The translations under genes and the position numbers were made by a program. 64,000 nt of DNA from a phage. Location of the stretch: NCBI GenBank assembly GCA_012690745.1, contig GCA_012690745.1_4086.2; one strand, given 5' to 3'. The notes beneath the pieces were generated by a model that saw nothing but the letters and a program-made list of their open reading frames with translations, was not told where the DNA came from and did no database searches. Shown here piece by piece: positions 19,548 to 34,185 of the stretch (position 1 is its first letter; each line of letters starts with the position of its first letter).

Positions 19548-19739
19548 ATGTATAAAAACTTCTATATAAGTAAACTAAAAGAAAATGAACAAGTATGGAT
19601 TAGATCTATAATTCCACTGGCATTTAATAGATATGCATTTAACAGATGTACCGAGATTGCTATAGACCCTTATAATATTAAAGAGAATGTACAGTATAAT
19701 CAGTACTACTATATCTTAATGCTTATATATAGAAAGTAA
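19548..19739 (+). CDS. small protein, array-2 family
   Basis: MYKNFY...LMLIYRK. Confidence 0.6.
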   Translation: MYKNFYISKLKENEQVWIRSIIPLAFNRYAFNRCTEIAIDPYNIKENVQYNQYYYILMLIYRK

Positions 19740-20150
19740 TTAAACACAAGTAGACAGGGGAAGCTCCTAGTGAACAACCTTTATGTACAGGCGAATTGTT
19801 AAAATTCAGCCTGGACAAATGCGATCACTAGGATTCTCCCCAGGCTAAACCTCGTAATCATAGGTAGTCATAAGTAATCATATATAAACATTTATATGAG
19901 CACCGTAGAATCACAGAATGATTATATATGATTCAGTACTGATTAGTATAGACAAGATTGCTCAAGAATGCACGGAAATGTGTGTGAATGATTCAGTACT
20001 GATATGCCACTAAGTAGGCAGAGGAAGTCTGCCGTACTTTGTAGTTTCCAAGCTCCTTTTCCATTTTGCAAATTACATCAAATGTAATCAAAAGTAATCA
20101 CGCAATGATTAGTACTGAATTATTACTTTCATCTTAATTTCAATTACCCC

Positions 20151-20168
20151 TTTACCCTTCGGGGTAAA
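20151..20168. other. UUCG-tetraloop-type hairpin flanked by 11-bp direct repeats
   Basis: TTTACCC-TTCG-GGGTAAA; CAATTACCCCT at 20141-20151 and 20172-20182. Confidence 0.4.
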
Positions 20169-20589
20169 ATTCAATTACCCCTTGAGGCTCCAGCAAAAAG
20201 TTGGTTAGTACTCCATCCTAAATCTGGATCGTAAAAATTTTGGAGTACCTATGAAATAAAAGTTGGATCTTCGAAAGTTGAAATTTACGTTGGGACGTTT
20301 ATGATTTGTGGGATATAATGATGATTGTAGTCGGGTAGTTCTCAAGAATATCAGTACTGAAAGATGAAAGAAAGTTATTGACATTATGATTCAGTACTGT
20401 ATAATGTTCTACATAGAGAGATGAGTTGCTGCGAACAATTCATTTACTCTACCTCCTGTCGTGAGACAGTACAGAAAAGATAGTTCCTCCTGTGGTGGTA
20501 CATCTTTTTGAACCTCATATGAAAATCGTAATAACAGTACTGATATTAACAGAATGGTATTAGTACTGATTTTAATCTAAAGCATTATG

Positions 20590-20609
20590 CCACCAGCACA
20601 AGCTGGTGG
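20590..20609. other. palindrome carrying Chi octamer on both strands
   Basis: CCACCAGC-ACAA-GCTGGTGG. Confidence 0.5.
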
Positions 20610-20796
20610 ATTCCCTCTAACAGTATTCAGTACTACATGATGGTCTTCATCCTCCTAGGGTAACATAGTGAGGGCTATGATGGCAGTACTGAATACTCCC
20701 TTTCAAAAGATAGATCTATGGTATAGTACTGACGGATTTTGGGTGTAGTTACCCTGGATGGATTTTGGGCGTAGATATGTCTAGCCCTCCAGAAGT

Positions 20797-20959
20797 CTGG
20801 AAGTAAAGATGGCTATCCATCTAGACGGCTAAACGGCTAGATTTCTGGATGGCTAGACGTTTGGACGGCTAAACGGCTAGATGGTTACACGTCTGGAAGT
20901 ATAGACGGCTAGACGGCTAAACGGCTAGATGGTTACACGTCTGGAAGTATAGACGGCTA
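20797..20959. repeat. iteron-like direct repeat cluster
   Basis: 48-bp unit beginning GACGGCTAAACGGCTAGATGG tandemly repeated at 20864-20911 and 20912-20959; partial copies 20797-20842. Confidence 0.6.
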
Positions 20960-21581
20960 AATCAAAATTTTATTTTGTTTTTTCCAATAGTTCCCCTACC
21001 GCGTCGGGGTAAATTCCCCAGCAGTATCGAACGTTAGATTTTTCTGAATCTGGAATCATTATCTTATAAACTGGGGGCAATGTCAACGGCCTGGACGGAT
21101 ATTTTTAAAATTTTTTTCAGTACTGAATTTTGGGCGTAACTATGCACCCGGTGGGCTTGAGTCTTTCTCGACTTGATGGAACTATTATACAGTACTGAAA
21201 AAATAAAGCAATACCCTGGAAGCAAAAAAGTTTTAATTAATTTGCTTGCTATCCTGGGCCGGACTATGGTACTATATTTCAGTACTGAGAAAGTGCGTTT
21301 ACCTGCTAGGGTGCGGGAGTGTATCCTTTTTTTATATCTTGAATTTTGGGCGTAATTCCGCACCCTCTGGGGTTTCCGCTTTCTCACGTCTATGTAGTAA
21401 TTATACGCTTTTTCAGGATCAAGTCAATACCTAAAAACAAAATAATTGAAAATAATTTAACGCGTTTAAACGGCCTGTAAAGCCCTGGAATGATTGGAAT
21501 GGTGCAAATGTATAGCTTATGTGTATTAATGCGTTAGAATGCGTCTGAGGCCGTTTTATGGGGTGTAGTAGTGATTTGGTT

Positions 21582-21672
21582 GATTCAGTACTGAATAATA
21601 GTACTCCTATATAGAAAGATAGTTCCCCTGGATTGATTCAGTACTGAATAATAGTACTCCTATATAGAAAGA
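21582..21672. repeat. 38-bp direct repeat x2
   Basis: GATTCAGTACTGAATAATAGTACTCCTATATAGAAAGA at 21582-21619 and 21635-21672. Confidence 0.6.
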
Positions 21673-21703
21673 AAACTATTTTAAAAGTATTTGTAGAAAG
21701 TAC

Positions 21704-21731
21704 TTGCACCGTACTGATAAAAGCGTATAAT
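21704..21731 (+). promoter_or_regulatory. early-type sigma70 promoter
   Basis: TTGCAC-16-TATAAT then GTTTTACATC and 5'UTR hairpin. Confidence 0.5.
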
Positions 21732-21786
21732 GTTTTACATCGAGAGCGGGAACACTTCCCGCTACACTTTAAGAGAGATTAATACG

Positions 21787-22149
21787 ATGGCAACTCAAAT
21801 CACCAAAATTATTGCTAACCTGGTTAACTTCCGCGACGAGATGAAAGATCTTCCGGCGGCGACGGTTAAAACTCACATTGACGCATACCGCGAACTGATT
21901 AAAATGCTGCCGCTTAAGCGTGAACAATACGCCGCTACCGTGATGCTTGATGCGATGATCCATAAGATGATCGCCAGTGATTTGACGATGGTTTATCAGT
22001 ATATGGGCGAAAATTTCGCGGTGTGTAGTAAGCCAGTACCAGGGATGGCAACAACTGAGGAATTGCACGGCTTAAACTTAAAACAAGATGCATGGGATAA
22101 TATGCCTCGTTTCCTGGTATGGGCTGACAGTGGCAAAATTTACAAATAA
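21787..22149 (+). CDS. hypothetical protein (120 aa)
   Basis: ORF track 21730..22149 trimmed to MATQITK; the upstream ATG lies in the promoter -10. Confidence 0.6.
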   Translation: MATQITKIIANLVNFRDEMKDLPAATVKTHIDAYRELIKMLPLKREQYAATVMLDAMIHKMIASDLTMVYQYMGENFAVCSKPVPGMATTEELHGLNLKQDAWDNMPRFLVWADSGKIYK

Positions 22150-22163
22150 GTTTAATAAAGTAC

Positions 22164-22191
22164 TTGCAAACTATGTTTAATGGCGTATAAT
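22164..22191 (+). promoter_or_regulatory. early-type sigma70 promoter
   Basis: TTGCAA-16-TATAAT. Confidence 0.5.
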
Positions 22192-22244
22192 GTTTTACAT
22201 CAGGTGGGGAATAGTTCCCCACTATATAAGAGGATTAAAAAAAA

Positions 22245-22484
22245 ATGGCTAAATCAAAAATGTTCTTAGGTCACAAAAACAAAACTCATTGGAATGTAAG
22301 CCTGTGGATTAATAACGATGAGGGATTGTATCGGTTGGCCCTGGACTTTATTGCCGCCAATACTAATCGCAATGATGCGGCCCGTCATATGATGTTATTT
22401 TTAGAACAGACTGGACAAGATAAAACACCGGACGGATTCAAATATAGCACTACTGCGATCCGTGCGGCGATGGTTGGAATGTAA
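22245..22484 (+). CDS. hypothetical protein
   Basis: ORF track. Confidence 0.6.
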   Translation: MAKSKMFLGHKNKTHWNVSLWINNDEGLYRLALDFIAANTNRNDAARHMMLFLEQTGQDKTPDGFKYSTTAIRAAMVGM

Positions 22485-22570
22485 TAGAATTTATTTAAAG
22501 TACTATCATTTTTTTGCGATAGTACTTTATAATAGTGTTTTATTCATACACCAACGATAAGGGCAACAGC

Positions 22571-22837
22571 ATGAATATTAAGTATTTTGCGACGCGTGAA
22601 CAAGCTCGGATCGCCGCACGCCAGGACGGGGCAACGTTTAAAGATATGGGAGCGGGATCGGCAAGTGGTAAACGTTGGGCCATTGTAAAGCGTAGTACGG
22701 CCAGATCATTACAGTACTGGTTAGCGGCCTTAAAAAGTCCCGATAGTGTATCGCGTCGAGTGGTAGAAATAAAGCTCGACCGAAAGGGCAACCGCGTGAC
22801 CGTGTACCGTACTAAAAAGATTGCAGTACTTGAATAA
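22571..22837 (+). CDS. hypothetical protein; paralogue of 35052..35447
   Basis: trimmed to MNIKYFATREQARIAAR; shared FATREQARI...TFKDMG...DRKGNRVTVY. Confidence 0.6.
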   Translation: MNIKYFATREQARIAARQDGATFKDMGAGSASGKRWAIVKRSTARSLQYWLAALKSPDSVSRRVVEIKLDRKGNRVTVYRTKKIAVLE

Positions 22838-22844
22838 AAAGTAC

Positions 22845-22872
22845 TTGCAAACTATGTTTAAAGGCGTATAAT
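22845..22872 (+). promoter_or_regulatory. early-type sigma70 promoter
   Basis: TTGCAA-16-TATAAT. Confidence 0.5.
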
Positions 22873-22924
22873 GTTTTACATCGAGAGCGGGAACTCTTCC
22901 CGCCTATAACCTGGAGTAATAAAA

Positions 22925-23155
22925 ATGACTAATATGTATATGACTGAAGTTAAAACCGTAAAAGATACTACCACGAATAAAACTACTTACTTACAGCGGA
23001 TCTGTGGTGTATGGCAACGTATCAGCAAATCAAAGTACTTTAAATTAACATCATATGCAAACCGTTCTGATTCATTCAGTACTGAAATAAAAGGTAATAA
23101 AGTACACCAATACGGCACTTATTATTATTACAGCCTGGACGCGATTGCAGTATAA
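22925..23155 (+). CDS. hypothetical protein
   Basis: ORF track. Confidence 0.55.
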   Translation: MTNMYMTEVKTVKDTTTNKTTYLQRICGVWQRISKSKYFKLTSYANRSDSFSTEIKGNKVHQYGTYYYYSLDAIAV

Positions 23156-23185
23156 GCAGTTTACAAATCTTTACAATTGCCGGTA

Positions 23186-23214
23186 TTGACTTATTTTGTC
23201 AGTACTGGCATAAT
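23186..23214 (+). promoter_or_regulatory. sigma70-type promoter upstream of a structured noncoding element
   Basis: TTGACT-17-CATAAT. Confidence 0.45.
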
Positions 23215-23404
23215 GTATTCATTGGCAGATAAGCCGTAGCCCATAGGGTGCGGGAGTGTATCTATAGAAAAATTAGTTTAGTATAGTTACAATTGTGCAC
23301 CCGGTGGGTTAGCTGTTGTCATGGGGTATATTATGCCAGTACTTGATAATGCTGTCAATACTTTTTTTTACTATCCAGTACAGAAAACTATTTTTAAAAA
23401 GTAC

Positions 23405-23432
23405 TTGCAAACTATGTTTAAAGGCGTATAAT
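23405..23432 (+). promoter_or_regulatory. early-type sigma70 promoter
   Basis: TTGCAA-16-TATAAT. Confidence 0.5.
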
Positions 23433-23522
23433 GTTTTACATCAGGACGGGGAACGAAATAAGTAACTTCCCGTTAAGTAGCCCAGGAGTAAGGCACACGA
23501 AAAACTCCCCTGATAAAATAGT

Positions 23523-23550
23523 TTGACAAATGTTTTTAAAAGCGTATAAT
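23523..23550 (+). promoter_or_regulatory. early-type sigma70 promoter
   Basis: TTGACA-16-TATAAT. Confidence 0.5.
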
Positions 23551-23582
23551 ACTTACATCAACTACTGAATGAGGGTTATAAA

Positions 23583-24194
23583 ATGAAAACTATCACTACT
23601 ACTACTTTCGTTATGGATTTTTCTGAATTGAACGCAGAACAACAAACGTCAGCTATCGAACTGGTTCGGGAACGTGAAAAAAACTCAAACGACAATTATT
23701 TTTCTGAAAGTGAAATTGAATACTATAAAGAAACAGTACTACCGGAATATGGCATTAATGACGCTGAAATACAATTCAGTGGTTTTTGGTCCCAGGGTGA
23801 CGGTGCATCAATCAGTACTGACCACGTTGACGCAGTGAAGTTTTTACGCAAGGTTAGAGCGTTAACTAAGTATCGCTCAATCCGTCACCTGCTGAATGAA
23901 GATGAATTATCTATGAGGGTACAGCGTTCTCAATCCCGCTACTCACACGAAAACACTGTAAGCGGGTACATTGAATCGGGGTACACTGATTTAACAGCAA
24001 AACAGGAAGCGTTAGCCAATGAGCTTGAGGAATTGCTTACTGTTACTATTCGTGAATTATCTCGCAAGTTGTACCGTGATTTAGAGAATGCATATGAGGA
24101 TCAATTCACTACTGAGAACATCACGGCACTGATCGAGGGTAACGAGTATCAATTCAATGTTATTGATGGCGTAGTAGAATCAATCGCATATTAA
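23583..24194 (+). CDS. hypothetical protein (203 aa)
   Basis: ORF track; SD GAGGG. Confidence 0.65.
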   Translation: MKTITTTTFVMDFSELNAEQQTSAIELVREREKNSNDNYFSESEIEYYKETVLPEYGINDAEIQFSGFWSQGDGASISTDHVDAVKFLRKVRALTKYRSIRHLLNEDELSMRVQRSQSRYSHENTVSGYIESGYTDLTAKQEALANELEELLTVTIRELSRKLYRDLENAYEDQFTTENITALIEGNEYQFNVIDGVVESIAY

Positions 24195-24249
24195 TTTAGT
24201 ACTGAGATAATGGCGGGGAATGGTTCCCGCCTTTACTGAGGAATATCTA

Positions 24250-24537
24250 ATGAGCAAAGTAATTAGCTATACAGTATTAAGCAAGTCATTATCTATTAGC
24301 CAGTGCACTGATGGTTATTGGCTTTATGATGAATCGCGTGGCATGAATTTAGCTATGCGTGCAAAAACTGCTGAGGCGGCGTATCTTGAGGCACTGGAAT
24401 ACTACCAGGAACGATTAAAGGAAGTAGAAAACGATTATAATAACCTGAAAGCGAAAGTAGATCATTTCGTCGGGCAATTCGTTGACGATGACGAGGAAGA
24501 CGGGCACTACTGCGACCGTTGCGGATCTTACAGTTAA
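24250..24537 (+). CDS. hypothetical protein
   Basis: trimmed to MSKVISY; SD GAGGAA. Confidence 0.55.
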   Translation: MSKVISYTVLSKSLSISQCTDGYWLYDESRGMNLAMRAKTAEAAYLEALEYYQERLKEVENDYNNLKAKVDHFVGQFVDDDEEDGHYCDRCGSYS

Positions 24538-24554
24538 GTACTAAGGATTATCTA

Positions 24555-24761
24555 ATGAGTGATTTAATTGAACGTATCAAAGAGCTTGAAGAAAAAGAAT
24601 TACAGTTAATCGGATTGCGTAATAAAGTTTATTCAGAGCTTGGAGGCTTCATACAGGCTTGGGATAGTGGTGATCCTGATGCTTTACCTGCTAACCGCCA
24701 GGCGATGATCAATGATGTGAGAAGTGTCTTTGATTATGTTTTAAAAAGTACTGGACACTAA
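24555..24761 (+). CDS. hypothetical protein
   Basis: trimmed to MSDLIERIKELEE; SD AAGGA. Confidence 0.55.
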   Translation: MSDLIERIKELEEKELQLIGLRNKVYSELGGFIQAWDSGDPDALPANRQAMINDVRSVFDYVLKSTGH

Positions 24762-24779
24762 GCAATAAAGGCGTATAAT
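24752..24779 (+). promoter_or_regulatory. possible sigma70 promoter (weak -35)
   Basis: TGGACA-16-TATAAT. Confidence 0.35.
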
Positions 24780-24831
24780 ACTTTATATCGAGAGCGGGAA
24801 TAGTTCCCGCTACTAATGAGGAATACTACAA

Positions 24832-24996
24832 ATGAATACTTTTACCTTCGCTCAATTGAACGCCCTGGATGTATTGTCTGATGCTTTGCGGGATGCAACT
24901 GAAAGCGGTTTATTTGACAATGTTGACATTCACCCTGATGTAATTAATAATTTTTGTGATGCTATCGCAGAAGTACTGGAAGATCTAAAAAAATAA
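24832..24996 (+). CDS. small hypothetical protein (54 aa)
   Basis: manual ORF MNTFTFAQLNALD; follows promoter, hairpin and SD GAGGAA. Confidence 0.45.
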   Translation: MNTFTFAQLNALDVLSDALRDATESGLFDNVDIHPDVINNFCDAIAEVLEDLKK

Positions 24997-25006
24997 TAGA
25001 AAGTAC

Positions 25007-25034
25007 TTGCAATTAGTTTTTAGTACTGTATAAT
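25007..25034 (+). promoter_or_regulatory. early-type sigma70 promoter
   Basis: TTGCAA-16-TATAAT. Confidence 0.5.
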
Positions 25035-25084
25035 AGTTTACATCAAGGGGAGAAATGGTTCTCCCTGGTAATGAGGAAAATAAA

Positions 25085-25306
25085 ATGGCTAATATCACTA
25101 CTCTTTCCCAACTGGAAGCACTGGTTAAATCTATGCGGGAACATGCCGACAATATCGGCGTAAAAGATCCAGCCGTTTGCTTCTGCGACGAAATGAATGA
25201 TGATACACTGGTAATAGCAGAAGTACAAGATATTTCTAACTATTCATCGCGTTACACTGGCGGCGTAGCAAATAAAGGTGACTTCTGTTTATACCTTACC
25301 AAATAA
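25085..25306 (+). CDS. hypothetical protein
   Basis: trimmed to MANITTLSQ. Confidence 0.6.
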   Translation: MANITTLSQLEALVKSMREHADNIGVKDPAVCFCDEMNDDTLVIAEVQDISNYSSRYTGGVANKGDFCLYLTK

Positions 25307-25474
25307 CAACGCGGGGAGATAATAACTCCCCGTTACTTTTTCAGTACTGAATCATTTAATAGACGGATCTCGGCACCCTGTGGGTTAGTGACTGTATCGT
25401 CTTTATGTAGTAATTATGCCAGTACTGGATGCAGTTGTCAACAATTATTTTTCAAATACTTTTTATTAAAATAC

Positions 25475-25502
25475 TTGCTATTAGTTTTTAAACGCGTATA
25501 AT
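25475..25502 (+). promoter_or_regulatory. early-type sigma70 promoter
   Basis: TTGCTA-16-TATAAT. Confidence 0.45.
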
Positions 25503-25549
25503 GTTTTGCATAGGGGGAGCGGTTCCCCTGGTAACTAAGGAATAAGAAA

Positions 25550-25786
25550 ATGGTCGAACAAATCAAATCAACGTCTTCGAATGTAACGGGAACGGTAGCA
25601 CACTTTACTAGTGATGAATCGCGGGGCGTTCCCTATTGTGCTGTACATGTAAACACTGAGGGTAACTACTGGTTTACGGTTTACGGATCATATTCATTTG
25701 GACGGCCAGGGCATCAAAAAATTCTGGATAAAGTACAACCAACGGGTAAAAATATCACTGCCGAAATGTTTTATAAAAAATCATAA
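25550..25786 (+). CDS. hypothetical protein
   Basis: ORF track. Confidence 0.6.
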   Translation: MVEQIKSTSSNVTGTVAHFTSDESRGVPYCAVHVNTEGNYWFTVYGSYSFGRPGHQKILDKVQPTGKNITAEMFYKKS

Positions 25787-25789
25787 AGT

Positions 25790-25817
25790 ACTTGATAATA
25801 GTTTTTAGTACTGTATA
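25790..25817 (+). promoter_or_regulatory. early-type sigma70 promoter
   Basis: TTGATA-16-TATAAT. Confidence 0.45.
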
Positions 25818-25870
25818 ATATTTTACATCGCAAGGGGGAGCGGTTCCCCCTGGTAACTAAGGATAATCAA

Positions 25871-26170
25871 ATGAAAATTGCAATCATCGCCCTGGCTTTA
25901 TCTGTTTCCTCTTTCGCTGTTAATGCGTCGTTAGATGTAAGTAGTGAAAAATTCATTCAGTGCACTGTAGCGATGACCAATGAAAGTACTGGCGAGATTG
26001 TTTTAAAGGATTTAGAGATCCAGCCCGAAGCATTTAAAAACGGGCCGTTCCATGAAGAAGACGAAAACGGTAGCACAACAATTTATTACGATGCAAGTAC
26101 TAAACGCGGTTCGGTCACTGTAATGGATACTGAGAAAGTAACGCACACAGGAGTAATTAACTGTTTATAA
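25871..26170 (+). CDS. small secreted or periplasmic protein (predicted signal peptide)
   Basis: N-term MKIAIIALALSVSSFAVNA is a typical Sec signal. Confidence 0.6.
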   Translation: MKIAIIALALSVSSFAVNASLDVSSEKFIQCTVAMTNESTGEIVLKDLEIQPEAFKNGPFHEEDENGSTTIYYDASTKRGSVTVMDTEKVTHTGVINCL

Positions 26171-26187
26171 TCTAGTACTGAATCACT

Positions 26188-26219
26188 AGCCCACTTATAC
26201 AGTGGGCTTTTTTGTTTTT
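26188..26219 (+). terminator. intrinsic terminator
   Basis: AGCCCACT-TATAC-AGTGGGCT then TTTTTTGTTTTTG. Confidence 0.65.
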
Positions 26220-26266
26220 GTAGTATCGTAGTACTGCATACTTTGAAAATAGTTTTAAAAAAGTAG

Positions 26267-26294
26267 TTGACATTACCAGGGAAAAGCGTAGAAT
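26267..26294 (+). promoter_or_regulatory. sigma70-type promoter
   Basis: TTGACA-16-TAGAAT. Confidence 0.45.
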
Positions 26295-26408
26295 GTATTA
26301 CATCAAGACGGGGAACATTAAGTAGACCGCCAGTAAGTCGAATGAAAAACTGGACACGTCAAACAAACTTTGATAAACTAACTTAAACTTTAATTGAGGA
26401 TTTATAAA

Positions 26409-26891
26409 ATGGCTAATGTAAAATCATTTCTGAAAGCACTGATTTCTAACGATACTGTTATTGCTGCTGAATTGCTGGCTGACCTGGATAATGATACCAT
26501 GAAAGCAGTACGCAACAATTTTAACATTGCTTACAGTGAAGCGAAAGAACTACAAGCCAAAAAGGTAGCAGAACTGGAAGAACAGAAAAAAGCCCGTGAA
26601 GCAGAACTGCAAGCAACAATAGAAAGTATTCAGGCGGCGGTGTCTGGTTTAGATCTGGAAGTGGTTATTGAAATGGCACATAAAGCCCTGGCGGTTAAGT
26701 ACGGTGAAGATAAGCCGGAATCTAAGCCTAAAAAATGGATTCAAGAACGTGTTACTGTTGTCCTTGATAACGGGGAAGAACATTTGATTCCTGTACGCGG
26801 TAACTGCATTGCGGTAGTACTGGATGCAATCAAAGAAAGCGGTATGACTCGCGAGGAATGGATCGAAGCTCACCGCAAAGTTGAAGCATAA
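26409..26891 (+). CDS. hypothetical protein (coiled-coil-like, KE-rich)
   Basis: trimmed to MANVKSFLK. Confidence 0.6.
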   Translation: MANVKSFLKALISNDTVIAAELLADLDNDTMKAVRNNFNIAYSEAKELQAKKVAELEEQKKAREAELQATIESIQAAVSGLDLEVVIEMAHKALAVKYGEDKPESKPKKWIQERVTVVLDNGEEHLIPVRGNCIAVVLDAIKESGMTREEWIEAHRKVEA

Positions 26892-26912
26892 CAATTAAAG
26901 TACTGAATCACT

Positions 26913-26942
26913 AGCCCACTGTATAAGTGGGCTTTTTTGTGT
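26913..26942 (+). terminator. intrinsic terminator
   Basis: AGCCCACTGTATAAGTGGGCT then TTTTTTGTGTTT. Confidence 0.65.
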
Positions 26943-27092
26943 TTATCGTTTACCAGGCCACCAGCACCGCCTAGAATCGATTCTAACGCATTAAACTGAT
27001 TATCTGATGCATCGCCCTAGCTGGTGGCGTTAAGGTCGTTAGAATGCGATTGAGGACGTTTAAAGTATTTTGCAAAAAGTAATAAAAAGTAC

Positions 27093-27120
27093 TTGCACGA
27101 TTAAGAGATTAGCGTATAAT
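27093..27120 (+). promoter_or_regulatory. early-type sigma70 promoter
   Basis: TTGCAC-16-TATAAT. Confidence 0.5.
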
Positions 27121-27175
27121 GTTTTACATCGAGAGGGGGAAACGGTTCTCCTTCCAAATCAAAGGAATCAAAACA

Positions 27176-27403
27176 ATGGCTATCGTAATCGCTTATGTAA
27201 CTGGTACTACTGGCACTTCTTCTACTGTTGCTGTAATTACCAACAAGAAAGGTGCGGAATTACATTCTGCAATGGATACCTGGGCGGTAAATGAGTTCGG
27301 TCAGTGGGCAAGTGTAGCATATGTTGAAACCTATCAAGTGCCAACCATTAGCTTAACGGATCTCGGTGTAGATCGTATCCTTTGCCTGGATGAATTAAAT
27401 TAA
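27176..27403 (+). CDS. hypothetical protein
   Basis: trimmed to MAIVIAYVTG. Confidence 0.6.
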   Translation: MAIVIAYVTGTTGTSSTVAVITNKKGAELHSAMDTWAVNEFGQWASVAYVETYQVPTISLTDLGVDRILCLDELN

Positions 27404-27411
27404 AAAAGTAC

Positions 27412-27439
27412 TTGCAAAGTAAATCAGATAAAGTATAAT
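27412..27439 (+). promoter_or_regulatory. early-type sigma70 promoter
   Basis: TTGCAA-16-TATAAT. Confidence 0.5.
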
Positions 27440-27489
27440 ACATTACATCAAGGGGAGAAATGGTTCTCCCTGATAATGAGGAAACTAAT

Positions 27490-27633
27490 ATGAAAACTTG
27501 TCAATGTGGTAAAAAATCTATTACTGGTTTAAAGCGGGGCGTTGCTCTTTGCCAGTACCATTATAATTTACAAGTATGGGGTAAAGAATGGGCCGACCAG
27601 GTGGAAGCAGCAAAGAAAGCAAAAAGTAAGTAA
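27490..27633 (+). CDS. small Cys-containing protein (47 aa)
   Basis: manual ORF MKTCQCGKKS...; SD GAGGAA. Confidence 0.45.
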   Translation: MKTCQCGKKSITGLKRGVALCQYHYNLQVWGKEWADQVEAAKKAKSK

Positions 27634-27653
27634 AATTATTATCACAGTACTAT

Positions 27654-27681
27654 TGACATAGATTGATAGTACTGGCATAAT
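27654..27681 (+). promoter_or_regulatory. sigma70-type promoter
   Basis: TTGACA-16-CATAAT. Confidence 0.5.
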
Positions 27682-27714
27682 AGATTTTATCAAGACAACT
27701 AAGAGGAAATTAAA

Positions 27715-28059
27715 ATGGCTAATATCAACACTATCGCAAAACAAAATATCAACCTGTCTTCTGTTGAAGTTGTACATATTGCCGCTCGGCGTTGGTTCCA
27801 GGCTTCATATGGTAACACTTATTTCTCTTTAAGTGTAGACGTAGAAATTGATGGTAATTTTATTGAAGTAGTAAACGTGCCGTTCCAATATGGATACGGG
27901 GATCACTTTGACACTGTAGCAATGGAAGAATTTAGCAAGGTTATTAATATGGAAGATAAAGAGTTTTTACGCGGTTCTTATCTTTCCCGTTTTTGCCGTG
28001 ACAATAATATCACTGTTTACAGTTCGGTAACTGATGTTAAACGCAAAAAAGATCTTTAA
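27715..28059 (+). CDS. hypothetical protein; paralogue of 34629..34952
   Basis: shared RW..GNTY..YGYG...RKKD(L/M) features. Confidence 0.6.
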   Translation: MANINTIAKQNINLSSVEVVHIAARRWFQASYGNTYFSLSVDVEIDGNFIEVVNVPFQYGYGDHFDTVAMEEFSKVINMEDKEFLRGSYLSRFCRDNNITVYSSVTDVKRKKDL

Positions 28060-28139
28060 TTAGCTTTACTTTATGCAGATACTTTGATACAGTGTCTGCA
28101 TAGGGGAAAGAAATTAAATCAACTTAAGAGGATAGTAAA

Positions 28140-28409
28140 ATGAAAAATATCAGTACTTTAATCGATGCAGGTACACATGTTCGTCGGTCTATGGTTGCAA
28201 CCAGTTCTACAAAACAAGTACCAAGCGGTTATCTTGTATTTGTGCACGATGGAAAACTCCTGGAACGTTCAATCAATTTTGATGTTAAAAACAATTGCCG
28301 TTTTATTATCTTTAAGCGTGAACAATATAAAATTGATTTGCCAGCGAAGCCCATTAGCGGGGCGTACAGCGTACAATCATTGTTTGAGCGTCAACCTTAC
28401 ACCTATTAA
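28140..28409 (+). CDS. hypothetical protein
   Basis: ORF track; SD AAGAGGA. Confidence 0.55.
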   Translation: MKNISTLIDAGTHVRRSMVATSSTKQVPSGYLVFVHDGKLLERSINFDVKNNCRFIIFKREQYKIDLPAKPISGAYSVQSLFERQPYTY

Positions 28410-28460
28410 TCAAAACATCGTTAGCGGTCGATTTAGGCCGCTTATATTGGGGATTATACC

Positions 28461-28733
28461 ATGAACGTTAATCAAGTACTGAATGAGATCGAAAGCATCA
28501 TTAAACCGATGAAGCGTACTGATGCTATGTTAACACCGGAAGAATGCCGCCTTTATGAGCGTTACAGCGTCGAACAAGTCCAGGCAATGGCTATGGCTAC
28601 CCCAGCCGTTTCACCGCCTGAGAATGCGTTACAGGACGTTACAGGGGATTATATCATTAATCCAGTACTAGGGAAGATGACTGCAATCACCGAAGATCAA
28701 AAAGACTACTTAAGCCAGTACTTAAAAGGTTAA
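28461..28733 (+). CDS. hypothetical protein
   Basis: ORF track. Confidence 0.55.
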   Translation: MNVNQVLNEIESIIKPMKRTDAMLTPEECRLYERYSVEQVQAMAMATPAVSPPENALQDVTGDYIINPVLGKMTAITEDQKDYLSQYLKG

Positions 28734-28738
28734 TTAAT

Positions 28739-28948
28739 ATGCTTACTGTACAGGATAAGATCGACATCTTAAAGGTTAATATGTATGTGATTGATGCCGT
28801 ACCTGGTAAAGTATTTGCATACGATGACACCACTGTAAGCAATTTCTACTATAGCCAGGACGTGGGGGATCTTTCTGTACAGTCGGTTATTGAAAATGTA
28901 GTTAATGCAGCGTATGAGCATTTACTTTCAAATAGTACTTGCAATTAG
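28739..28948 (+). CDS. hypothetical protein
   Basis: ORF track. Confidence 0.5.
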   Translation: MLTVQDKIDILKVNMYVIDAVPGKVFAYDDTTVSNFYYSQDVGDLSVQSVIENVVNAAYEHLLSNSTCN

Positions 28949-28966
28949 TTTTTAAACGCGTATAAT
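28939..28966 (+). promoter_or_regulatory. early-type sigma70 promoter
   Basis: TTGCAA-16-TATAAT. Confidence 0.5.
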
Positions 28967-29017
28967 GTTTTACATGAAGGGGAGAAATGATTCTCCCCAC
29001 TAATTAAGGAATATGAA

Positions 29018-29164
29018 ATGAAAGCATCAAAAAAGAGTAATACTAAGAAAGCATGTTCACCTTTCGCTGGGGTATTCCCTTTACGTTTCGTTGATGAAGT
29101 GGTTTCCTACCCGCCGGGCCTTACTCCTGAGATGGTAGAAAGTTTGCGTAAATCTAAAAAATAA
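29018..29164 (+). CDS. small basic protein (48 aa)
   Basis: manual ORF MKASKKSNTKK... Confidence 0.4.
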   Translation: MKASKKSNTKKACSPFAGVFPLRFVDEVVSYPPGLTPEMVESLRKSKK

Positions 29165-29167
29165 TAC

Positions 29168-29195
29168 TTGCAATTAGTTTTTAGTACTGTATAAT
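29168..29195 (+). promoter_or_regulatory. early-type sigma70 promoter
   Basis: TTGCAA-16-TATAAT. Confidence 0.5.
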
Positions 29196-29245
29196 TGTTT
29201 ACATAGAGGGGGAAATGGTTCTCCCCTGATACAAGGAGAATCAAA

Positions 29246-29398
29246 ATGAAACAATATAATGCTCGGTTTGATGTTACTATCGGTAACGGCAAAGGTCAAT
29301 TTTCTTTCAGTACTCGACGCAGTTATACAGAAAACTTCCTGCGTAATTGTGCACTGACCGCCGCTCAAATTAAACATTATTTTCAGGCTAAAAAATGA
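29246..29398 (+). CDS. small protein (50 aa)
   Basis: manual ORF MKQYNARFDV...; SD AAGGAGAA. Confidence 0.45.
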   Translation: MKQYNARFDVTIGNGKGQFSFSTRRSYTENFLRNCALTAAQIKHYFQAKK

Positions 29399-29484
29399 AA
29401 TCATTAGCTTATTACAGTTCGGCCCTGGTCGGTGCATTGATCGCGGCGTTGTTAGTAACCTATCTATTCTTTATGGTGATTTAA
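29395..29484 (+). CDS. small hydrophobic peptide (29 aa)
   Basis: manual ORF MKSLAYYSSALVGALIAALLVTYLFFMVI; ATGA overlap. Confidence 0.35.
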   Translation: MKSLAYYSSALVGALIAALLVTYLFFMVI

Positions 29485-29622
29485 ATGAATCCTAACGGTA
29501 TAATTTACAGTACTCCTAAAACGAAAGCAGATAAAGCGAAAGCACGTAAAGCGAAAGTAAAGGAGTACATCAAGCAAGGCATGACGCGAAAGGCGGCGAT
29601 TCTGAAAGCTAAAAATAAATGA
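29485..29622 (+). CDS. small lysine-rich protein (45 aa)
   Basis: manual ORF MNPNGIIYSTPKTKADKAKARKAK... Confidence 0.35.
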   Translation: MNPNGIIYSTPKTKADKAKARKAKVKEYIKQGMTRKAAILKAKNK

Positions 29623-29630
29623 AAAAGTGG

Positions 29631-29660
29631 TTGACTTCGGTCAGCCATTTTGCTATTATA
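29631..29660 (+). promoter_or_regulatory. repeated hairpin-promoter module, copy 1
   Basis: TGGTTGAC-TTCG-GTCAGCCA hairpin overlapping TTGACT-18-TATTAT. Confidence 0.45.
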
Positions 29661-29763
29661 TATTCATTGAGAGATAGCTCACTAGCCCACAGGGTGCAGG
29701 AGTGTATCTATTGTATAATGATTGAGTACAGAAAACTATTTTAAAGTATTTGATAAAAAGTAC

Positions 29764-29791
29764 TTGCATACTATCTCAATAGGCGTATAAT
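29764..29791 (+). promoter_or_regulatory. early-type sigma70 promoter
   Basis: TTGCAT-16-TATAAT. Confidence 0.5.
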
Positions 29792-29842
29792 GTTTTACAT
29801 CGCAAGGGGAAACGGTTTCCCCTGGTAATAAGGAAACGAATC

Positions 29843-30184
29843 ATGACTATTGCAATTGCTCAATCTAACTTTGAAAACGAAATCATCGCTCAGGCACTGC
29901 GTTTAAATGATGGTCGGGCCGAAATCAATTACGGTTTCAATAGTGGTGGATGTGAAAAATATCAGTACTTTGTAACGGCTGATGGCTGTGTCCTGGGTAT
30001 CAATACAGTTATTGTAAACATTCAGAAAATTAATTTCAATGATCCAGACGATAGCCAGTTTTACATCACGGGCGTAGACGTGAACTATGAGGATGACTCA
30101 CTAACTGATGATCACACTGGCGAGAAGTTAGAAAGTGCATACGGTGAAGATGATTATCAGTCCGGTCCAGAAGATTTCGAATAA
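29843..30184 (+). CDS. hypothetical acidic protein
   Basis: ORF track. Confidence 0.6.
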   Translation: MTIAIAQSNFENEIIAQALRLNDGRAEINYGFNSGGCEKYQYFVTADGCVLGINTVIVNIQKINFNDPDDSQFYITGVDVNYEDDSLTDDHTGEKLESAYGEDDYQSGPEDFE

Positions 30185-30198
30185 TATTAAAAAATAGT

Positions 30199-30226
30199 TT
30201 GACAATAGTTTTTAGTACTGTATAAT
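30199..30226 (+). promoter_or_regulatory. early-type sigma70 promoter
   Basis: TTGACA-16-TATAAT. Confidence 0.55.
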
Positions 30227-30279
30227 AGTTTACATCAAGGGGAGAATAGTTCTCCCCACTAACAGAGAGAGAAAACAAA

Positions 30280-30492
30280 ATGGCTAATATCCGCACTGTA
30301 CTGAAAAATGCAAAACAAGTTTTATTTTCTGATCATGAAAATTTCAACAAGGATATCACTGGCGTTCGGAATATCAAAGATGTAAAAAATGTTATGGGTA
30401 TCTATTGCAATATGAAACGTGTTGGCACGTTCGGCGATAAAGTACTATACCAGGCAGGGGATTACAATTTTACACTGACTATCATTAACTAA
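30280..30492 (+). CDS. hypothetical protein
   Basis: ORF track. Confidence 0.6.
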   Translation: MANIRTVLKNAKQVLFSDHENFNKDITGVRNIKDVKNVMGIYCNMKRVGTFGDKVLYQAGDYNFTLTIIN

Positions 30493-30511
30493 AAATATTA
30501 TCACAGTACTA

Positions 30512-30540
30512 TTGACAACGTTTGATAGTACTGGCATAAT
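30512..30540 (+). promoter_or_regulatory. sigma70-type promoter
   Basis: TTGACA-17-CATAAT. Confidence 0.5.
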
Positions 30541-30583
30541 AACTTTTATCAAGACAACGCATATTAATTTAAGGAATACTAAA

Positions 30584-30763
30584 ATGGCTATTATCGCAAA
30601 AACTGAAATCATCGGCCTGGATTCTATCATCATGACGTTTGAAGATCAAAAAGGGATGTATGTAGTTTCCTATGGTGATTATGTTCGGGAGTATGAAACA
30701 GTAGACGAAGCCTTTGAAAGTTACATTCGCCAGGTTAATAAAGCATACGACGATTACCGCTAA
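30584..30763 (+). CDS. hypothetical protein (59 aa)
   Basis: trimmed to MAIIAKTEI; SD AAGGAA. Confidence 0.5.
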   Translation: MAIIAKTEIIGLDSIIMTFEDQKGMYVVSYGDYVREYETVDEAFESYIRQVNKAYDDYR

Positions 30764-30790
30764 AATATATTACCAGTACTATTAAATCTA

Positions 30791-30818
30791 TTGACAATGT
30801 TTGATAGTACTGTATAAT
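30791..30818 (+). promoter_or_regulatory. early-type sigma70 promoter
   Basis: TTGACA-16-TATAAT. Confidence 0.55.
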
Positions 30819-30862
30819 AACTTTTATCAACAGTAGTTAACTTAACCTAAGAGAGAAAAATC

Positions 30863-31006
30863 ATGACAGCATTAGATTCATTCATCGACGCAGTACTGGC
30901 AAAAACTGGCGAGGATCTGACCGCAGAACAATACGCGATGATCGAGCAATGCCAGCAAAACGGTAAATCGGTGAAAGATACTGTTAAGATTATCCGCAAG
31001 ATGTAA
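30863..31006 (+). CDS. small protein (47 aa)
   Basis: manual ORF MTALDSFIDAVLAK...; SD AGAGAGAA. Confidence 0.4.
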   Translation: MTALDSFIDAVLAKTGEDLTAEQYAMIEQCQQNGKSVKDTVKIIRKM

Positions 31007-31012
31007 GATTAT

Positions 31013-31040
31013 AGCCCACTGGTTAACGCTGGTGGGCTTT
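31013..31040 (+). terminator. terminator-like hairpin containing a Chi octamer
   Basis: AGCCCACTGG-N6-CTGGTGGGCT then TTT. Confidence 0.4.
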
Positions 31041-31111
31041 AATCATTTACCCTATACAATGCCAGTACTAAACCGTTTAACTCGTTAGAATGCGTTACAG
31101 GACGTTTAACA

Positions 31112-31309
31112 ATGATTAGCATGAAATCAGTACAAAAACAAATAGAAACATTATCAAAAATTAAACGTAAACAGTACTCCTTAGAATATACAATCAATGG
31201 TAACTATCATCTAATGAAAGAAAATAATTTTATAGTCATTGATGAATCATTGCAGATCATTAGTATAGTACTGAAAGCATTAATCAATGACAGAAAAAAG
31301 TTAAAATAA
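31112..31309 (+). CDS. hypothetical protein
   Basis: ORF track. Confidence 0.5.
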   Translation: MISMKSVQKQIETLSKIKRKQYSLEYTINGNYHLMKENNFIVIDESLQIISIVLKALINDRKKLK

Positions 31310-31314
31310 TCTAT

Positions 31315-31343
31315 TGACAAATTATGCCAGTACTGGCATAATA
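31315..31343 (+). promoter_or_regulatory. sigma70-type promoter
   Basis: TTGACA-17-CATAAT. Confidence 0.5.
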
Positions 31344-31638
31344 CTTACATCAAGACGAGAACGTCACTAACCCATAGGGTGCACAAATGTAACTATATAA
31401 TATCGATCAATAAATGATCAAAAAAGTACTGGATCAATTTAGCATAAGGCGTATAATTCTGATCAAATCTTGATCAAAGGCAATAAACGTAGTTGAAATT
31501 ATATAGAAAGTACAAAGGCGTTACCATTCGTGGTAATGCTGGGGAATATGTAGTATCATACGGTTTGAATAAAATCAGTACTAGTAGTATTATTGTAGCA
31601 TTACAGTACTATAGTATTTTTATAATGAGGTTAAAATA

Positions 31639-31896
31639 ATGGCTGTTGGATTCGCGAAGGACGGGGCCGAGCAAGACGAGATTAACGCAGTGATTCAGGC
31701 CGCTGTAAACCACGCTAGAACGCAAATTAACGCACAAATAGAATCACTGATACATTGCCTCGACTGCGGCGATAAAATCCCTGAGAATCGCCGCCTGGCC
31801 GTTAAGGGGTGTAAGTACTGCATCACTTGCCAGGCTGATCATGATAGCATATTCAAACGCAATCCCCGTAATTGTTGGCATAGATCTATGAGATAA
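31639..31896 (+). CDS. TraR/DksA-family C4 zinc-finger protein (putative)
   Basis: C-x2-C-x17-C-x2-C (HCLDCGDKIPENRRLAVKGCKYCITC); SD TGAGG. Confidence 0.55.
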   Translation: MAVGFAKDGAEQDEINAVIQAAVNHARTQINAQIESLIHCLDCGDKIPENRRLAVKGCKYCITCQADHDSIFKRNPRNCWHRSMR

Positions 31897-31902
31897 AAAG
31901 TA

Positions 31903-31930
31903 TTGACAGTGCTGTTAGTTAGTGTATAAT
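31903..31930 (+). promoter_or_regulatory. early-type sigma70 promoter
   Basis: TTGACA-16-TATAAT. Confidence 0.55.
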
Positions 31931-31959
31931 ATTTTATATCTTAACTGAGGATTGAAATC

Positions 31960-32316
31960 ATGGGTATACAACATATCACGCGTACTACAGACAATGGTGA
32001 GATCACTGGCTATCAAGTACAAGGCAAAGTAGCACAATTGCAGTACTGGTTTGTTAAACGTGGCATTGTTGCACCGGATCTTGATTATGATCGTGTAGCG
32101 TTTATTGATTCTCTTTATGTTGATCCCGATAATCGCGGTAACGGTGAAGGTACTGAATTAATGAATGCCTTTATTGATGCCGCCGATGATTCAGATTGTA
32201 TCATCTTAGAATGCGATACGGGAGAAGATAACGAGTTTAATCTTAAAGAATGGTATGAAAGTTTTGGTTTTGAAGTACTGATTAACTGTGAATATCCTAT
32301 AATGATTTTATCCTAG
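31960..32316 (+). CDS. possible GNAT-like acetyltransferase-fold protein
   Basis: IDSLYVDPDNRGNGEGTELM resembles GNAT motif A (R-x-x-G-x-G); weak. Confidence 0.5.
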   Translation: MGIQHITRTTDNGEITGYQVQGKVAQLQYWFVKRGIVAPDLDYDRVAFIDSLYVDPDNRGNGEGTELMNAFIDAADDSDCIILECDTGEDNEFNLKEWYESFGFEVLINCEYPIMILS

Positions 32317-32319
32317 TAC

Positions 32320-32347
32320 TTGCATTTAGTTTTAAGTACTGTATAAT
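32320..32347 (+). promoter_or_regulatory. early-type sigma70 promoter
   Basis: TTGCAT-16-TATAAT. Confidence 0.5.
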
Positions 32348-32395
32348 AGTTTACATGAAGGGGAGAATAGTTCTCCCCACTACAAGGAAAGACAA

Positions 32396-32584
32396 ATGCA
32401 AAACTTATCAAGTATTTTAGTACAAGATGATTTTGGTAATCCTGGAAGTGCTATCATCGTTCGGGGCAATAAGGCAACGTTTGTTATTGCTGGTGGACCT
32501 GTACAGCGTAGCATTAAAAACAATGCAGTTACAATCAATAATGTTCGCTATCGCTTAGATAAAGAATTGATTCATAAACTGTAA
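32396..32584 (+). CDS. hypothetical protein
   Basis: ORF track. Confidence 0.55.
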   Translation: MQNLSSILVQDDFGNPGSAIIVRGNKATFVIAGGPVQRSIKNNAVTINNVRYRLDKELIHKL

Positions 32585-32611
32585 TATTAATTTAATAGAG
32601 GATAAAAATAA

Positions 32612-32935
32612 ATGTATATTCATACTACTATCACAAAAGAAGTTCGTTGTCAATTCGAAAGTATCCCTGGTGTATGTTTCATTACAGGCACTTTCTCACC
32701 TGGTGACCGTGATAATCCAGTACTGTTACAGTTACGCCATCCATTATGGGATAAAGCATTTGATCTGCCGTTGAATGAATTCGCAACCACTGCTGATAAG
32801 TACATTAAAAATATTCGCGAGAATGATTGCCTATTCATTAATGCTTTTAGTGATGCCGCGTTAAGTGAGATCCATGCTGTATTGGTTGCAATCATGGAAT
32901 CAATGGAGAAAACTAAATTCAAACAAGGTGAATAA
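32612..32935 (+). CDS. hypothetical protein
   Basis: ORF track; SD AGAGGA. Confidence 0.6.
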   Translation: MYIHTTITKEVRCQFESIPGVCFITGTFSPGDRDNPVLLQLRHPLWDKAFDLPLNEFATTADKYIKNIRENDCLFINAFSDAALSEIHAVLVAIMESMEKTKFKQGE

Positions 32936-32941
32936 AAACTA

Positions 32942-32969
32942 TTGACAATGTAATCTAGTACTGTATAAT
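32942..32969 (+). promoter_or_regulatory. early-type sigma70 promoter
   Basis: TTGACA-16-TATAAT. Confidence 0.55.
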
Positions 32970-33018
32970 AGTTTACATGAAGGGGAGAAATGATTCTCCC
33001 CACTAAGAGGAAAGAAAC

Positions 33019-33231
33019 ATGCAAGGTCAACTAATCGTTCGTAAATGGTCTGATACTAACGAAAAACCGTGGGATGTTCAATATATCGGACCGGACGGTG
33101 TTTCACGTTATCAACCTGGCGTAACGCATAGTACTGAGCAATATGCCGCCGCTCACCGTGAACGCCTGTTAGAATCTATGAAACAGGGATTCTGTGAAAA
33201 ATTCATTCAAGATCATTGGCTGAAAGATTAA
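33019..33231 (+). CDS. hypothetical protein
   Basis: ORF track. Confidence 0.6.
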   Translation: MQGQLIVRKWSDTNEKPWDVQYIGPDGVSRYQPGVTHSTEQYAAAHRERLLESMKQGFCEKFIQDHWLKD

Positions 33232-33248
33232 TAGAAGGAGTACAGCTT

Positions 33249-33341
33249 ATGCAAATGAATCCGATGATTGTTGTGTTAGCTGTACTTATGATCATTCATG
33301 CCATCGTAGAAGTACTAACACAATCAGGAGTAATACAATGA
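33249..33341 (+). CDS. small hydrophobic peptide (30 aa)
   Basis: manual ORF MQMNPMIVVLAVLMIIHAIVEVL...; strong SD AAGGAG. Confidence 0.4.
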   Translation: MQMNPMIVVLAVLMIIHAIVEVLTQSGVIQ

Positions 33342-33654: not shown

Positions 33655-33672
33655 AAAGATTTAAAAAAGGGA

Positions 33673-34176: not shown

Positions 34177-34185
34177 TAAAATAGT

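Follow-up and report, generated by a model that had tools for sequence, protein, structure and literature searches.

What is a 2-kb stretch without genes doing in the genome of a jumbo phage? The stretch in question, referred to below as the region, is the 1,961 bp at positions 19740–21700 of a 64,000-nucleotide piece of phage DNA (the window; contig GCA_012690745.1_4086.2 of GenBank assembly GCA_012690745.1). The source of the window is an Asteriusvirus jumbo coliphage of the 121Q/PBECO4/G17 group, and 37 phage records match the region at 88–97% identity, each from an Asteriusvirus jumbo coliphage with a genome of 310–384 kb, such as 121Q, PBECO4, G17 or ELP-22. A sequence-only reading of the window had suggested a replication origin, a packaging site or a small-RNA locus lying between divergently organised gene blocks. 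We propose that the region is probably the left end of the Asteriusvirus virion chromosome, consisting of a packaging terminus and the non-coding early-control leader of a direct terminal repeat (DTR). The packaging part of the earlier interpretation therefore stands, because the left virion DNA end of the relatives falls inside the region, at window position 20013, and the sequence of the cut site is kept across genera; the divergent gene context has to be given up.

The terminus was located by mapping the ends of eight repeat-bearing relatives' records (ELP-22, fEgEco12, E9.1, CRJP21, vB_Ec-M-J, BF17, G17 and WPEC5) onto the window. The first base of all eight corresponds to 20013 (AGTAGGCAGAGGAAGTCTGCC...), and the last base corresponds to 40717 (...GGGCGGGTAACCT) in seven, so that the window carries one collapsed, 20,705-bp copy of the DTR. 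In the ELP-22 record a 21,279-bp repeat is present at both ends (positions 1–21279 = 352210–373488), and DTR features are annotated in the records of vB_Ec-M-J and of two phages of other genera, Klebsiella phage Muenster and Pectobacterium phage CBB. The length that we obtain agrees with published values for relatives, which are 20,993 bp for fEgEco12 by PhageTerm and restriction digests (PMC13070987), ~20.5 kb for BF17 by PhageTerm (PMC10059673), 20,668 bp for Sharanji by PhageTerm (PMC11895373) and ~20 kb for G17 from read depth (PMC6563267); an 8.3-kb repeat reported for UE-S1 is doubted in the fEgEco12 paper (PMC13070987). By transfer from the relatives, the virion DNA is expected to have unique, non-permuted ends at fixed nucleotides, and the relatives' records carry the same sequence at both ends. 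On this reading, the region starts with 273 bp from the end of the unique sequence, crosses the cut site and continues into non-coding DNA, a 1.77-kb leader that stops where the first DTR gene begins. In the DTR as a whole we count 10 Chi sites and ~33 sigma-70 promoters, along with small genes on the + strand. The repeat and its borders are as follows, with a slash marking the cut here and below.

20013..40717, + strand: collapsed single copy of the DTR, 20,705 bp, from relatives' record ends mapped onto the window
19991..20015, no strand assigned: left cut-site block ATTCAGTACTGATATGCCACTA/AGT, cut between 20012 and 20013, from relatives' starts and identity with Muenster
40700..40728, no strand assigned: right cut site CTAAAGGGCGGGTAACCT/TAGCGACTTCG, cut after 40717, the end of 7 of 8 relatives' records

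Comparison with Muenster (Alcyoneusvirus; PhageTerm repeat 1–20030) and with CBB (Mimasvirus; terminal repeat of 22,456 bp, PMC5259590) indicates that the cut sites are conserved beyond the genus. At the left cut, 25 of 25 nt are identical and in register in Muenster, and nothing else can be aligned between Muenster and the window within ±400 nt of the cut. The CBB left junction is TTCAGTACTG-N14-CTA/TAT, and AAGTC stands at +13 to +17 from the left end in all three genera. The right junctions of Asteriusvirus, Muenster and CBB are CTAAAGGGCGGGTAACCT/TAGCG, GTAAAGTGGTATTAGGCT/TAGCA and CTAAAGGCCAGTAACGCT/TAGCG, respectively, which makes CT/TAGC common to the three. Read on the minus strand, the right cut is GCTA/AG, as against ACTA/AG at the left cut; the two borders thus share one core, RCTA/AG, on opposite strands. 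The + strand of the window has eight copies of the motif C[AG]CTAAG and the minus strand has one, which lies exactly at the right end (40716). Such an inverted core would suit a strand-specific nuclease that makes staggered cuts at the two DTR borders. Scans of IMG/VR with the left-junction word and with words of the 8-bp array described next returned only 121Q itself, one chance match within a gene of an unrelated high-GC phage, and three contigs with array-like repeats that are not interpretable.

Well inside the left cut, 770–950 bp from the end, lies the single array of its kind in the window. The 48-bp tandem unit noted in the sequence-only reading is recovered by Tandem Repeats Finder (TRF) at 20795–20959 (period 48, 3.4 copies, score 183), and the period that underlies it is 8 bp (CTAGACGG, 17.4 copies, 20821–20959). 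An AT-rich tract that matches the consensus of integration host factor (IHF) adjoins the array.

20782..20962, no strand assigned: tandem array of the 8-bp unit TAGAYGGN, ~17–22 units arranged as 48-bp super-repeats, from repeat analysis
20960..20985, no strand assigned: AT-rich tract with IHF-consensus match (AATCAAAATTTTA), directly 3' of the array and kept in the alignment

The copy number of the array differs among relatives. A homologous array (TAGATGGC, TAGACGTT, TAGACGGC...) lies 689–876 bp from the CBB left end, and homologous arrays lie 673–845 bp from the record starts of Serratia phage BF and the Erwinia pEa_SNUABM phages. As a lead, blastn searches also place similar arrays close to record ends or DTR starts, at distances of up to a few hundred bp, in phages that are unrelated. 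These include the T5-like vibriophages Quinn (33–129), Noelle (210–322), Pontus (481–602) and Cilsick (118532 of 126526), the phiKT-like podophages PGT2 (45–114) and KPV811 (42500–42571 of 42641), and Aeromonas AhSzq-1, Providencia PSTCR5 and Yersinia phage fHe-Yen9-04 (43–145).

As predicted from the sequence, the DTR is a very dense early-promoter module confined to the repeat. A scan for TTGNNN, a 16–18 nt spacer and TATAAT finds ~33 near-consensus sigma-70 promoters between 20378 and 39830, or ~1 per 600 bp, nearly all with a 16-nt spacer. Downstream of the promoters come ..TTTACATC.. and, ahead of the ribosome-binding site, a 5' stem-loop of which GGGGAGAA-TAG-TTCTCCCC is an example; AGTACTG abuts the -10 box in 13 of the ~33, and those that precede genes are all on the + strand and directed away from the left end, to which the nearest sigma-70 promoter begins at a distance of 366 bp. 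Four members of this family (P1–P4) belong to the leader, and two of them, P2 and P3, face the left end.

20378..20405, + strand: P1, TTGACA/16-nt spacer/TATAAT (slashes here and in P2 and P3 separate elements), CAGTACTG abutting the -10 box; 12 of 12 consensus positions, no open reading frame (ORF) after it
20412..20510, + strand: candidate ~100-nt non-coding RNA from P1, from folding and the promoter
21184..21211, minus strand: P2, TTGCTT/16-nt spacer/TATAAT, CAGTACTG abutting the -10 box; present in Muenster, RaK2 and CBB
21243..21335, + strand: central rightward unit with a promoter-like site, CAGTACTGAGAAAGTGC..GCTAGGGTGCGGG and a T-run, from the three-genus alignment
21400..21427, minus strand: P3, TTGACT/16-nt spacer/TATAAT; 11 of 12 consensus positions, kept in Muenster, RaK2 and CBB
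21704..21731, + strand: P4, promoter of the first DTR gene (ATG at 21787), from the promoter scan

Both hexamers of P1 are invariant in nine genomes, with few substitutions in the spacer. The candidate RNA that would start from it is predicted to fold into a 5' stem-loop, a GUGA-loop hairpin and a hairpin followed by a U-run, and contains two CCUCCU motifs. Its minimum free energy (MFE) is -30.9 kcal/mol (z -3.2 for 101 nt; z -5.4 for a 201-nt version), and compensatory changes are found in 8 of 34 pairs among seven sequences, a modest covariation, as most of it comes from two divergent genomes. P2, the central unit and P3 form a trio that is kept in Muenster, RaK2 and CBB. The central unit, which includes a terminator-like site at 21308–21327, is the block best conserved across genera, with matches in Muenster, RaK2 and K64-1, and the predicted P3 transcript would be antisense to it. 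In reverse complement, the ATTTTGGGCGTAA boxes correspond to the 3' parts of the transcripts predicted from P2 and P3. The stem of the P2 unit shows a compensatory change between genera, GCACCC..GGGC in the window and CACGCC..GGCGTC in Muenster.

The repeat is also rich in Chi. Of 12 copies of the octamer GCTGGTGG in the window, where 0.53 would be expected, 10 lie in the DTR (binomial p = 4e-4), for which the expectation is ~0.2. Seven of these 10 are outside every + strand ORF of at least 45 aa, DNA that makes up 29% of the DTR (p = 0.009). Their orientation is not random: eight plus-strand sites face the right end, the nearest 1.4 kb in, and two minus-strand sites face the left end, the first 578 bp in. 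This is the orientation expected of a Chi hotspot, in which RecBCD entering from an end meets 5'-GCTGGTGG-3' from its 3' side. The site nearest to the left end belongs to the palindrome, carrying Chi on both strands, that had been picked out from the sequence.

20590..20609, no strand assigned: Chi palindrome CCACCAGC-ACAA-GCTGGTGG, 578 bp from the left end, its minus-strand Chi facing RecBCD that enters there

The palindrome is at the same position in ELP-22 and fEgEco12, whose DTRs carry 11 and 12 Chi sites, respectively, with nearly none in the flanks and the same orientation pattern as in the window. The repeats of Muenster (8 sites) and CBB (9 sites) are Chi-rich as well, and mostly + strand Chi with one or two minus-strand sites is common to all five phages. 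The loop of the Chi hairpin (20598–20601) reads ACAA in the window, ELP-22, PBECO4 and ph0011 and TTGT in G17, fEgEco12, 121Q and JNE01; the loop is inverted among relatives, since the two versions are reverse-complementary while the stems are unchanged.

That the region has no convincing ORF, as the sequence-only reading had it, is borne out by close relatives. The annotations of 121Q, PBECO4, G17, A4 and ph0011 place no gene there. The two longest ORFs (107 and 59 aa, both on the minus strand) are disrupted by frameshifts or stops in PBECO4, ph0011, 121Q and JNE01, a 62-aa ORF is disrupted in these four as well, and none of the three has a Pfam or PHROG match; we therefore rejected a protein-coding reading of the three. 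No tRNA or tmRNA was found in the window, and Rfam 15 gave nothing at the gathering threshold in the window and nothing at E <= 1 in 19600–21900. The annotation matters here in that many GenBank records of the genus are arbitrarily permuted or have short spurious ORFs called in the region. The genes on either side do match PHROGs, and both are on the + strand, for which reason the region cannot lie between divergent gene blocks.

19548..19739, + strand: last unique-region gene, stop at 19739, phrog_11711 (left flank)
21787..22149, + strand: first DTR gene, ATG at 21787, phrog_7352 (right flank)

Tandem arrays of paralogous genes of ~60–70 aa occupy ~17565–19739 and 40785–41624, just outside both DTR borders. 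Cumulative GC skew has its minimum at ~20000, the left DTR border; the skew is negative in the + strand genes of 15000–19739 and positive in the + strand genes of the DTR. Elsewhere in the window, at 2875–13900, each large minus-strand gene is followed by a minus-strand hairpin GCCAGTAC-NN(N)-GTACTGGC with a T-run; this hairpin is in turn followed by TATTAAATATAGTATAATGAATAAAGGAGG, which resembles a T4-type late promoter (TATAAATA), and a ribosome-binding site, and the hairpin/TATTAAATATAGTATAATGAATAAAGGAGG unit occurs at least nine times.

The remaining repeats and hairpins that had been listed for the region are all present at the coordinates given for them, some with a refinement. The 38-bp direct repeat proves to be two identical 40-nt copies, at 21580–21619 and 21633–21672, 53 bp apart. 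The UUCG hairpin, TTTACCC-TTCG-GGGTAAA at 20148–20168, has direct copies of TTCAATTACCCCTT on either side. The repeated boxes, ATTTTGGG(C/T)GTA, number four (20737, 20763, 21128 and 21344), all within the region and none elsewhere in the window.

19745..19850, + strand: long imperfect hairpin directly 3' of the last unique-region gene, an inverted repeat with 23-nt arms
19853..19890, no strand assigned: 10-bp-phased GTAATCA repeats left of the cut, TRF period 10 at 19854–19882, kept in a nine-genome alignment
20013..20038, + strand: terminal hairpin-capable sequence AGTA-GGCAGA-GGAAG-TCTGCC, from folding; hairpin not kept in phage A4
20139..20183, + strand: UUCG-loop hairpin between 14-nt direct repeats, indel-prone in relatives
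20535..20568, + strand: hairpin with a 14-bp stem formed by two inverted AGTACTGAT motifs, from folding
20733..20779, no strand assigned: two ATTTTGGG(T/C)GTAG boxes upstream of the 8-bp array, from repeat families
21580..21672, no strand assigned: 53-bp tandem duplication with two identical 40-nt cores, 1–3 copies among relatives

The long hairpin at 19745–19850 (MFE -36.7 kcal/mol, z about -5.9 by mononucleotide shuffles), whose 5' arm is replaced in several relatives, is probably the end of the upstream operon. A second set of GTAATCA repeats lies to the right of the cut, at 20077–20100 (TRF period 10). Palindromes of the type GCACCC-N3-4-GGGTGC occur in intergenic DTR DNA at 21144, 21360, 23297, 25373, 31370, 33722 and 37030, and another lies 18 nt from the Muenster left end.

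The many copies of TCAGTACTGA that had drawn attention to the region are there, 7 of the 16 in the window (0.14 expected), as are 11 of the 52 copies of CAGTACTG (0.94 expected); what does not hold is that they are special to it. The palindrome is not region-specific because AGTACT occurs 262 times in the window, a 12-fold excess over the zero-order expectation (13-fold for GTACTG), in genes and other coding DNA, promoter spacers and terminator stems alike, and the region is simply the densest patch of the window. AGTACT is nearly absent from two stretches of 5–6 kb (40581–45587 and ~48000–54000) and equally dense in the DTRs of Muenster and CBB. Given this over-representation across the genome and in other genera, TCAGTACTGA was dropped as a region-specific operator or iteron. 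A literature search for AGTACT together with jumbo phages found no paper.

Taken as the left chromosome end, the region suggests the following sequence of events. Concatemers would be cut at ...GCCACTA/AGT on the left and at ...CCT/TAGC on the right, where the same RCTA/AG core lies on opposite strands; the strand-specific cuts would be staggered, and the repeat would then be copied in the manner proposed for T7. The packaging machinery may dock on the 8-bp array, the 10-bp-phased GTAATCA repeats and the IHF-like tract, all of them candidate binding platforms. On injection, the left end is expected to be the first to enter the host, whose RNA polymerase would then use the strong sigma-70 promoters that begin 366 bp from the end. 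The end-facing Chi sites, 578 bp in from the left and 1.4 kb in from the right, may turn RecBCD from a degrading enzyme into one that loads RecA; the ends would be protected in this way, and the two copies of the repeat would be driven to recombine.

Parts of this arrangement have counterparts in known systems. The T7 left end, as Dunn and Studier are said to have described it in 1983, has a 160-bp terminal repeat, an array of short repeats (SRL) and the strong Escherichia coli promoters A1–A3 before the first gene. The likeness lies in exact, non-permuted ends with a direct terminal repeat, in ~1 kb of gene-free DNA at the left end with a short-unit tandem array nearby, and in inward promoters of host type, which in T7 help to pull the DNA into the cell. 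Here, however, the repeat is 20.7 kb rather than 160 bp, the array lies inside it, two promoters point outward, and the terminase is T4-like, not T7-like (PMC5259590). T5 resembles the present case in its long DTR (~10 kb) and its untranslated repeat regions (bioRxiv 10.1101/866236); its region differs in lying at the inner boundary with paired DnaA boxes, whereas ours lies at the outer left boundary and has none, and in a function tied to two-step DNA transfer. In phage P1, Chi is clustered in or near the terminal redundancy, and RecBCD-dependent recombination between terminal repeats, or circularisation, has been proposed (bioRxiv 10.1101/2021.07.08.451572; PMC12315714). The many-fold excess of Chi where the virion ends lie, in orientations facing those ends, is shared with our phage; phage P1, in contrast, is a temperate headful packager with variable ends, whereas ours is a virulent jumbo phage with fixed ends, whose Chi sites are for the most part intergenic in an early-gene module.

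Lambda cos combines a nicking site, cosN, with cosB, which holds the R sites for terminase and an IHF site. It is matched here by a sequence-specific terminase cut with repeated protein-binding sites (candidates in our case) and an IHF-type site nearby; lambda differs in having 12-nt cohesive ends and no terminal repeat, whereas here 20.7 kb separate the two cuts, and ~0.8 kb lie between the cut and the array that is the candidate for binding. A lambda-type cos site, which gives single-stranded cohesive ends without terminal redundancy, was rejected, as the relatives carry a ~20.7 kb DTR, and headful (pac) packaging was rejected because the end nucleotides are identical across independent records and genera rather than permuted or variable.

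Several points weigh against the region being the chromosome end as we describe it. The terminus position is transferred to the window phage from relatives that are 88–97% identical, and some of their records may have been co-oriented to an earlier record and so not be independent. The right end of ELP-22 falls 128 bp short of that of the other seven, at window 40589 (...CTAGTACTGAT; record OR699282.2), where the terminus was probably mis-set in the record. The CBB left end, CTA/TAT, departs from the shared core, which is itself just 6–7 nt long and was spotted post hoc. Alcyoneusvirus has a different repeat in place of the 8-bp array (GAGAATGATTCTC palindromes at that position in Muenster), and the array itself is a putative binding site, either for packaging or for replication machinery. 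The activity of P1–P3 as promoters and of the DTR sites as Chi is predicted from their sequences, and entry of the left end first is assumed by analogy with T7 and T5.

Two of the alternatives would be compatible with a role as terminus. The region may harbour a small-RNA locus, a possibility that we take seriously without favouring it, in which the ~100-nt P1 RNA and an antisense trio (leftward P2 and P3 RNAs and a rightward central RNA) would regulate early phage or host mRNAs. The perfect consensus of P1 with its invariant hexamers, the fold of its RNA (z -3.2 to -5.4, terminal hairpin with U-run, some compensatory pairs), CCUCCU motifs that could pair with Shine-Dalgarno sequences and the retention of the P2, central and P3 units in three genera all argue for such a locus; yet Rfam is silent even at E <= 1, two divergent sequences supply the covariation, the P1 RNA is conserved no further than Asteriusvirus, a loosely specified literature search for transcript data on the phage group gave nothing useful, and the promoters could instead serve DNA entry or priming. 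A replication origin, which we regard as rather doubtful, would employ the array and the AT-rich IHF-like tract through an iteron-binding initiator, or R-loops from the orphan promoters P1–P3; R-loop priming from promoters has a precedent in T4 oriF and oriG. The region does have tandem iteron-like units (~17–22 copies at 20782–20962, followed by a ~25-nt AT-rich tract with one IHF-consensus match at 20960), promoters without an ORF downstream and the cumulative GC skew minimum at ~20000, and the group has a T4-type replisome (PMC5259590). Against an origin, there is no DnaA box within 19000–22500 and no initiator gene or conserved ORF in or beside the region, the array sequence is replaced in Alcyoneusvirus, the skew shifts where the gene family also changes and may reflect composition, and the similar arrays near the ends of unrelated DTR phages fit end processing better.

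The two other explanations fare worse. An element that controls DNA entry, in the way of the T5 injection stop signal, would use its repeats and hairpins to pause transfer while early proteins are still to be synthesised. In T5, a boundary of the terminal repeat carries 1.66 kb of untranslated, repeat-rich DNA that is conserved among T5-like phages (bioRxiv 10.1101/866236), and arrays like the 8-bp one occur in T5-like vibriophages. The T5 element, however, follows the pre-early genes, at the inner (right) edge of the left repeat, and bears paired DnaA boxes in inverted repeats; our region lies at the other border, has no such boxes, and precedes all DTR genes, so that a stop there would expose none. 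Two-step transfer is not reported for the phage group in the literature searched, and we consider this explanation improbable. Least credible of all is that the region is a remnant of decayed genes or neutral spacer with chance repeats. Some annotators do call short ORFs in it, and indels and repeat copy number differ among relatives, but these ORFs are not conserved, specific blocks are kept across genera while the surrounding non-coding DNA is unalignable, and motif counts are far above those of shuffled controls.

We return to the region as packaging terminus and early-control leader, for which a more detailed scheme can be put forward as a speculation that we would not expect to survive intact. 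The DTR borders would be inverted copies of a short nick site, RCTA/AG; the nicks of a strand-specific nuclease would thus fall on opposite strands at a distance of 20.7 kb, and the repeat would be restored by strand-displacement synthesis over 20 kb. The machinery would load at the 8-bp array, ~0.8 kb inside the end, and unrelated DTR phages (T5-like vibriophages and phiKT-like podophages) would have this module in common with ours. An intergenic Chi armour would turn RecBCD from destroying the ends to recombination-dependent replication or circularisation. The existence and approximate length of the repeat are already published, as are the exact ends for fEgEco12; the literature searched yielded no account of how the cut sites are conserved across genera, nor of the inverted core, of the promoter and RNA modules, of the conserved position of the array or of how the Chi sites are arranged.

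To our knowledge, the cutting and duplication of very long exact terminal repeats are poorly understood, T5 included. For a group of phages with genomes of >350 kb, several members of which have been proposed for therapy, the analysis provides two cut sites, placed to the nucleotide and kept from genus to genus, together with a candidate binding array. The arrangement of Chi sites in the repeat further predicts that these phages would depend on the RecBCD and RecA of their host.

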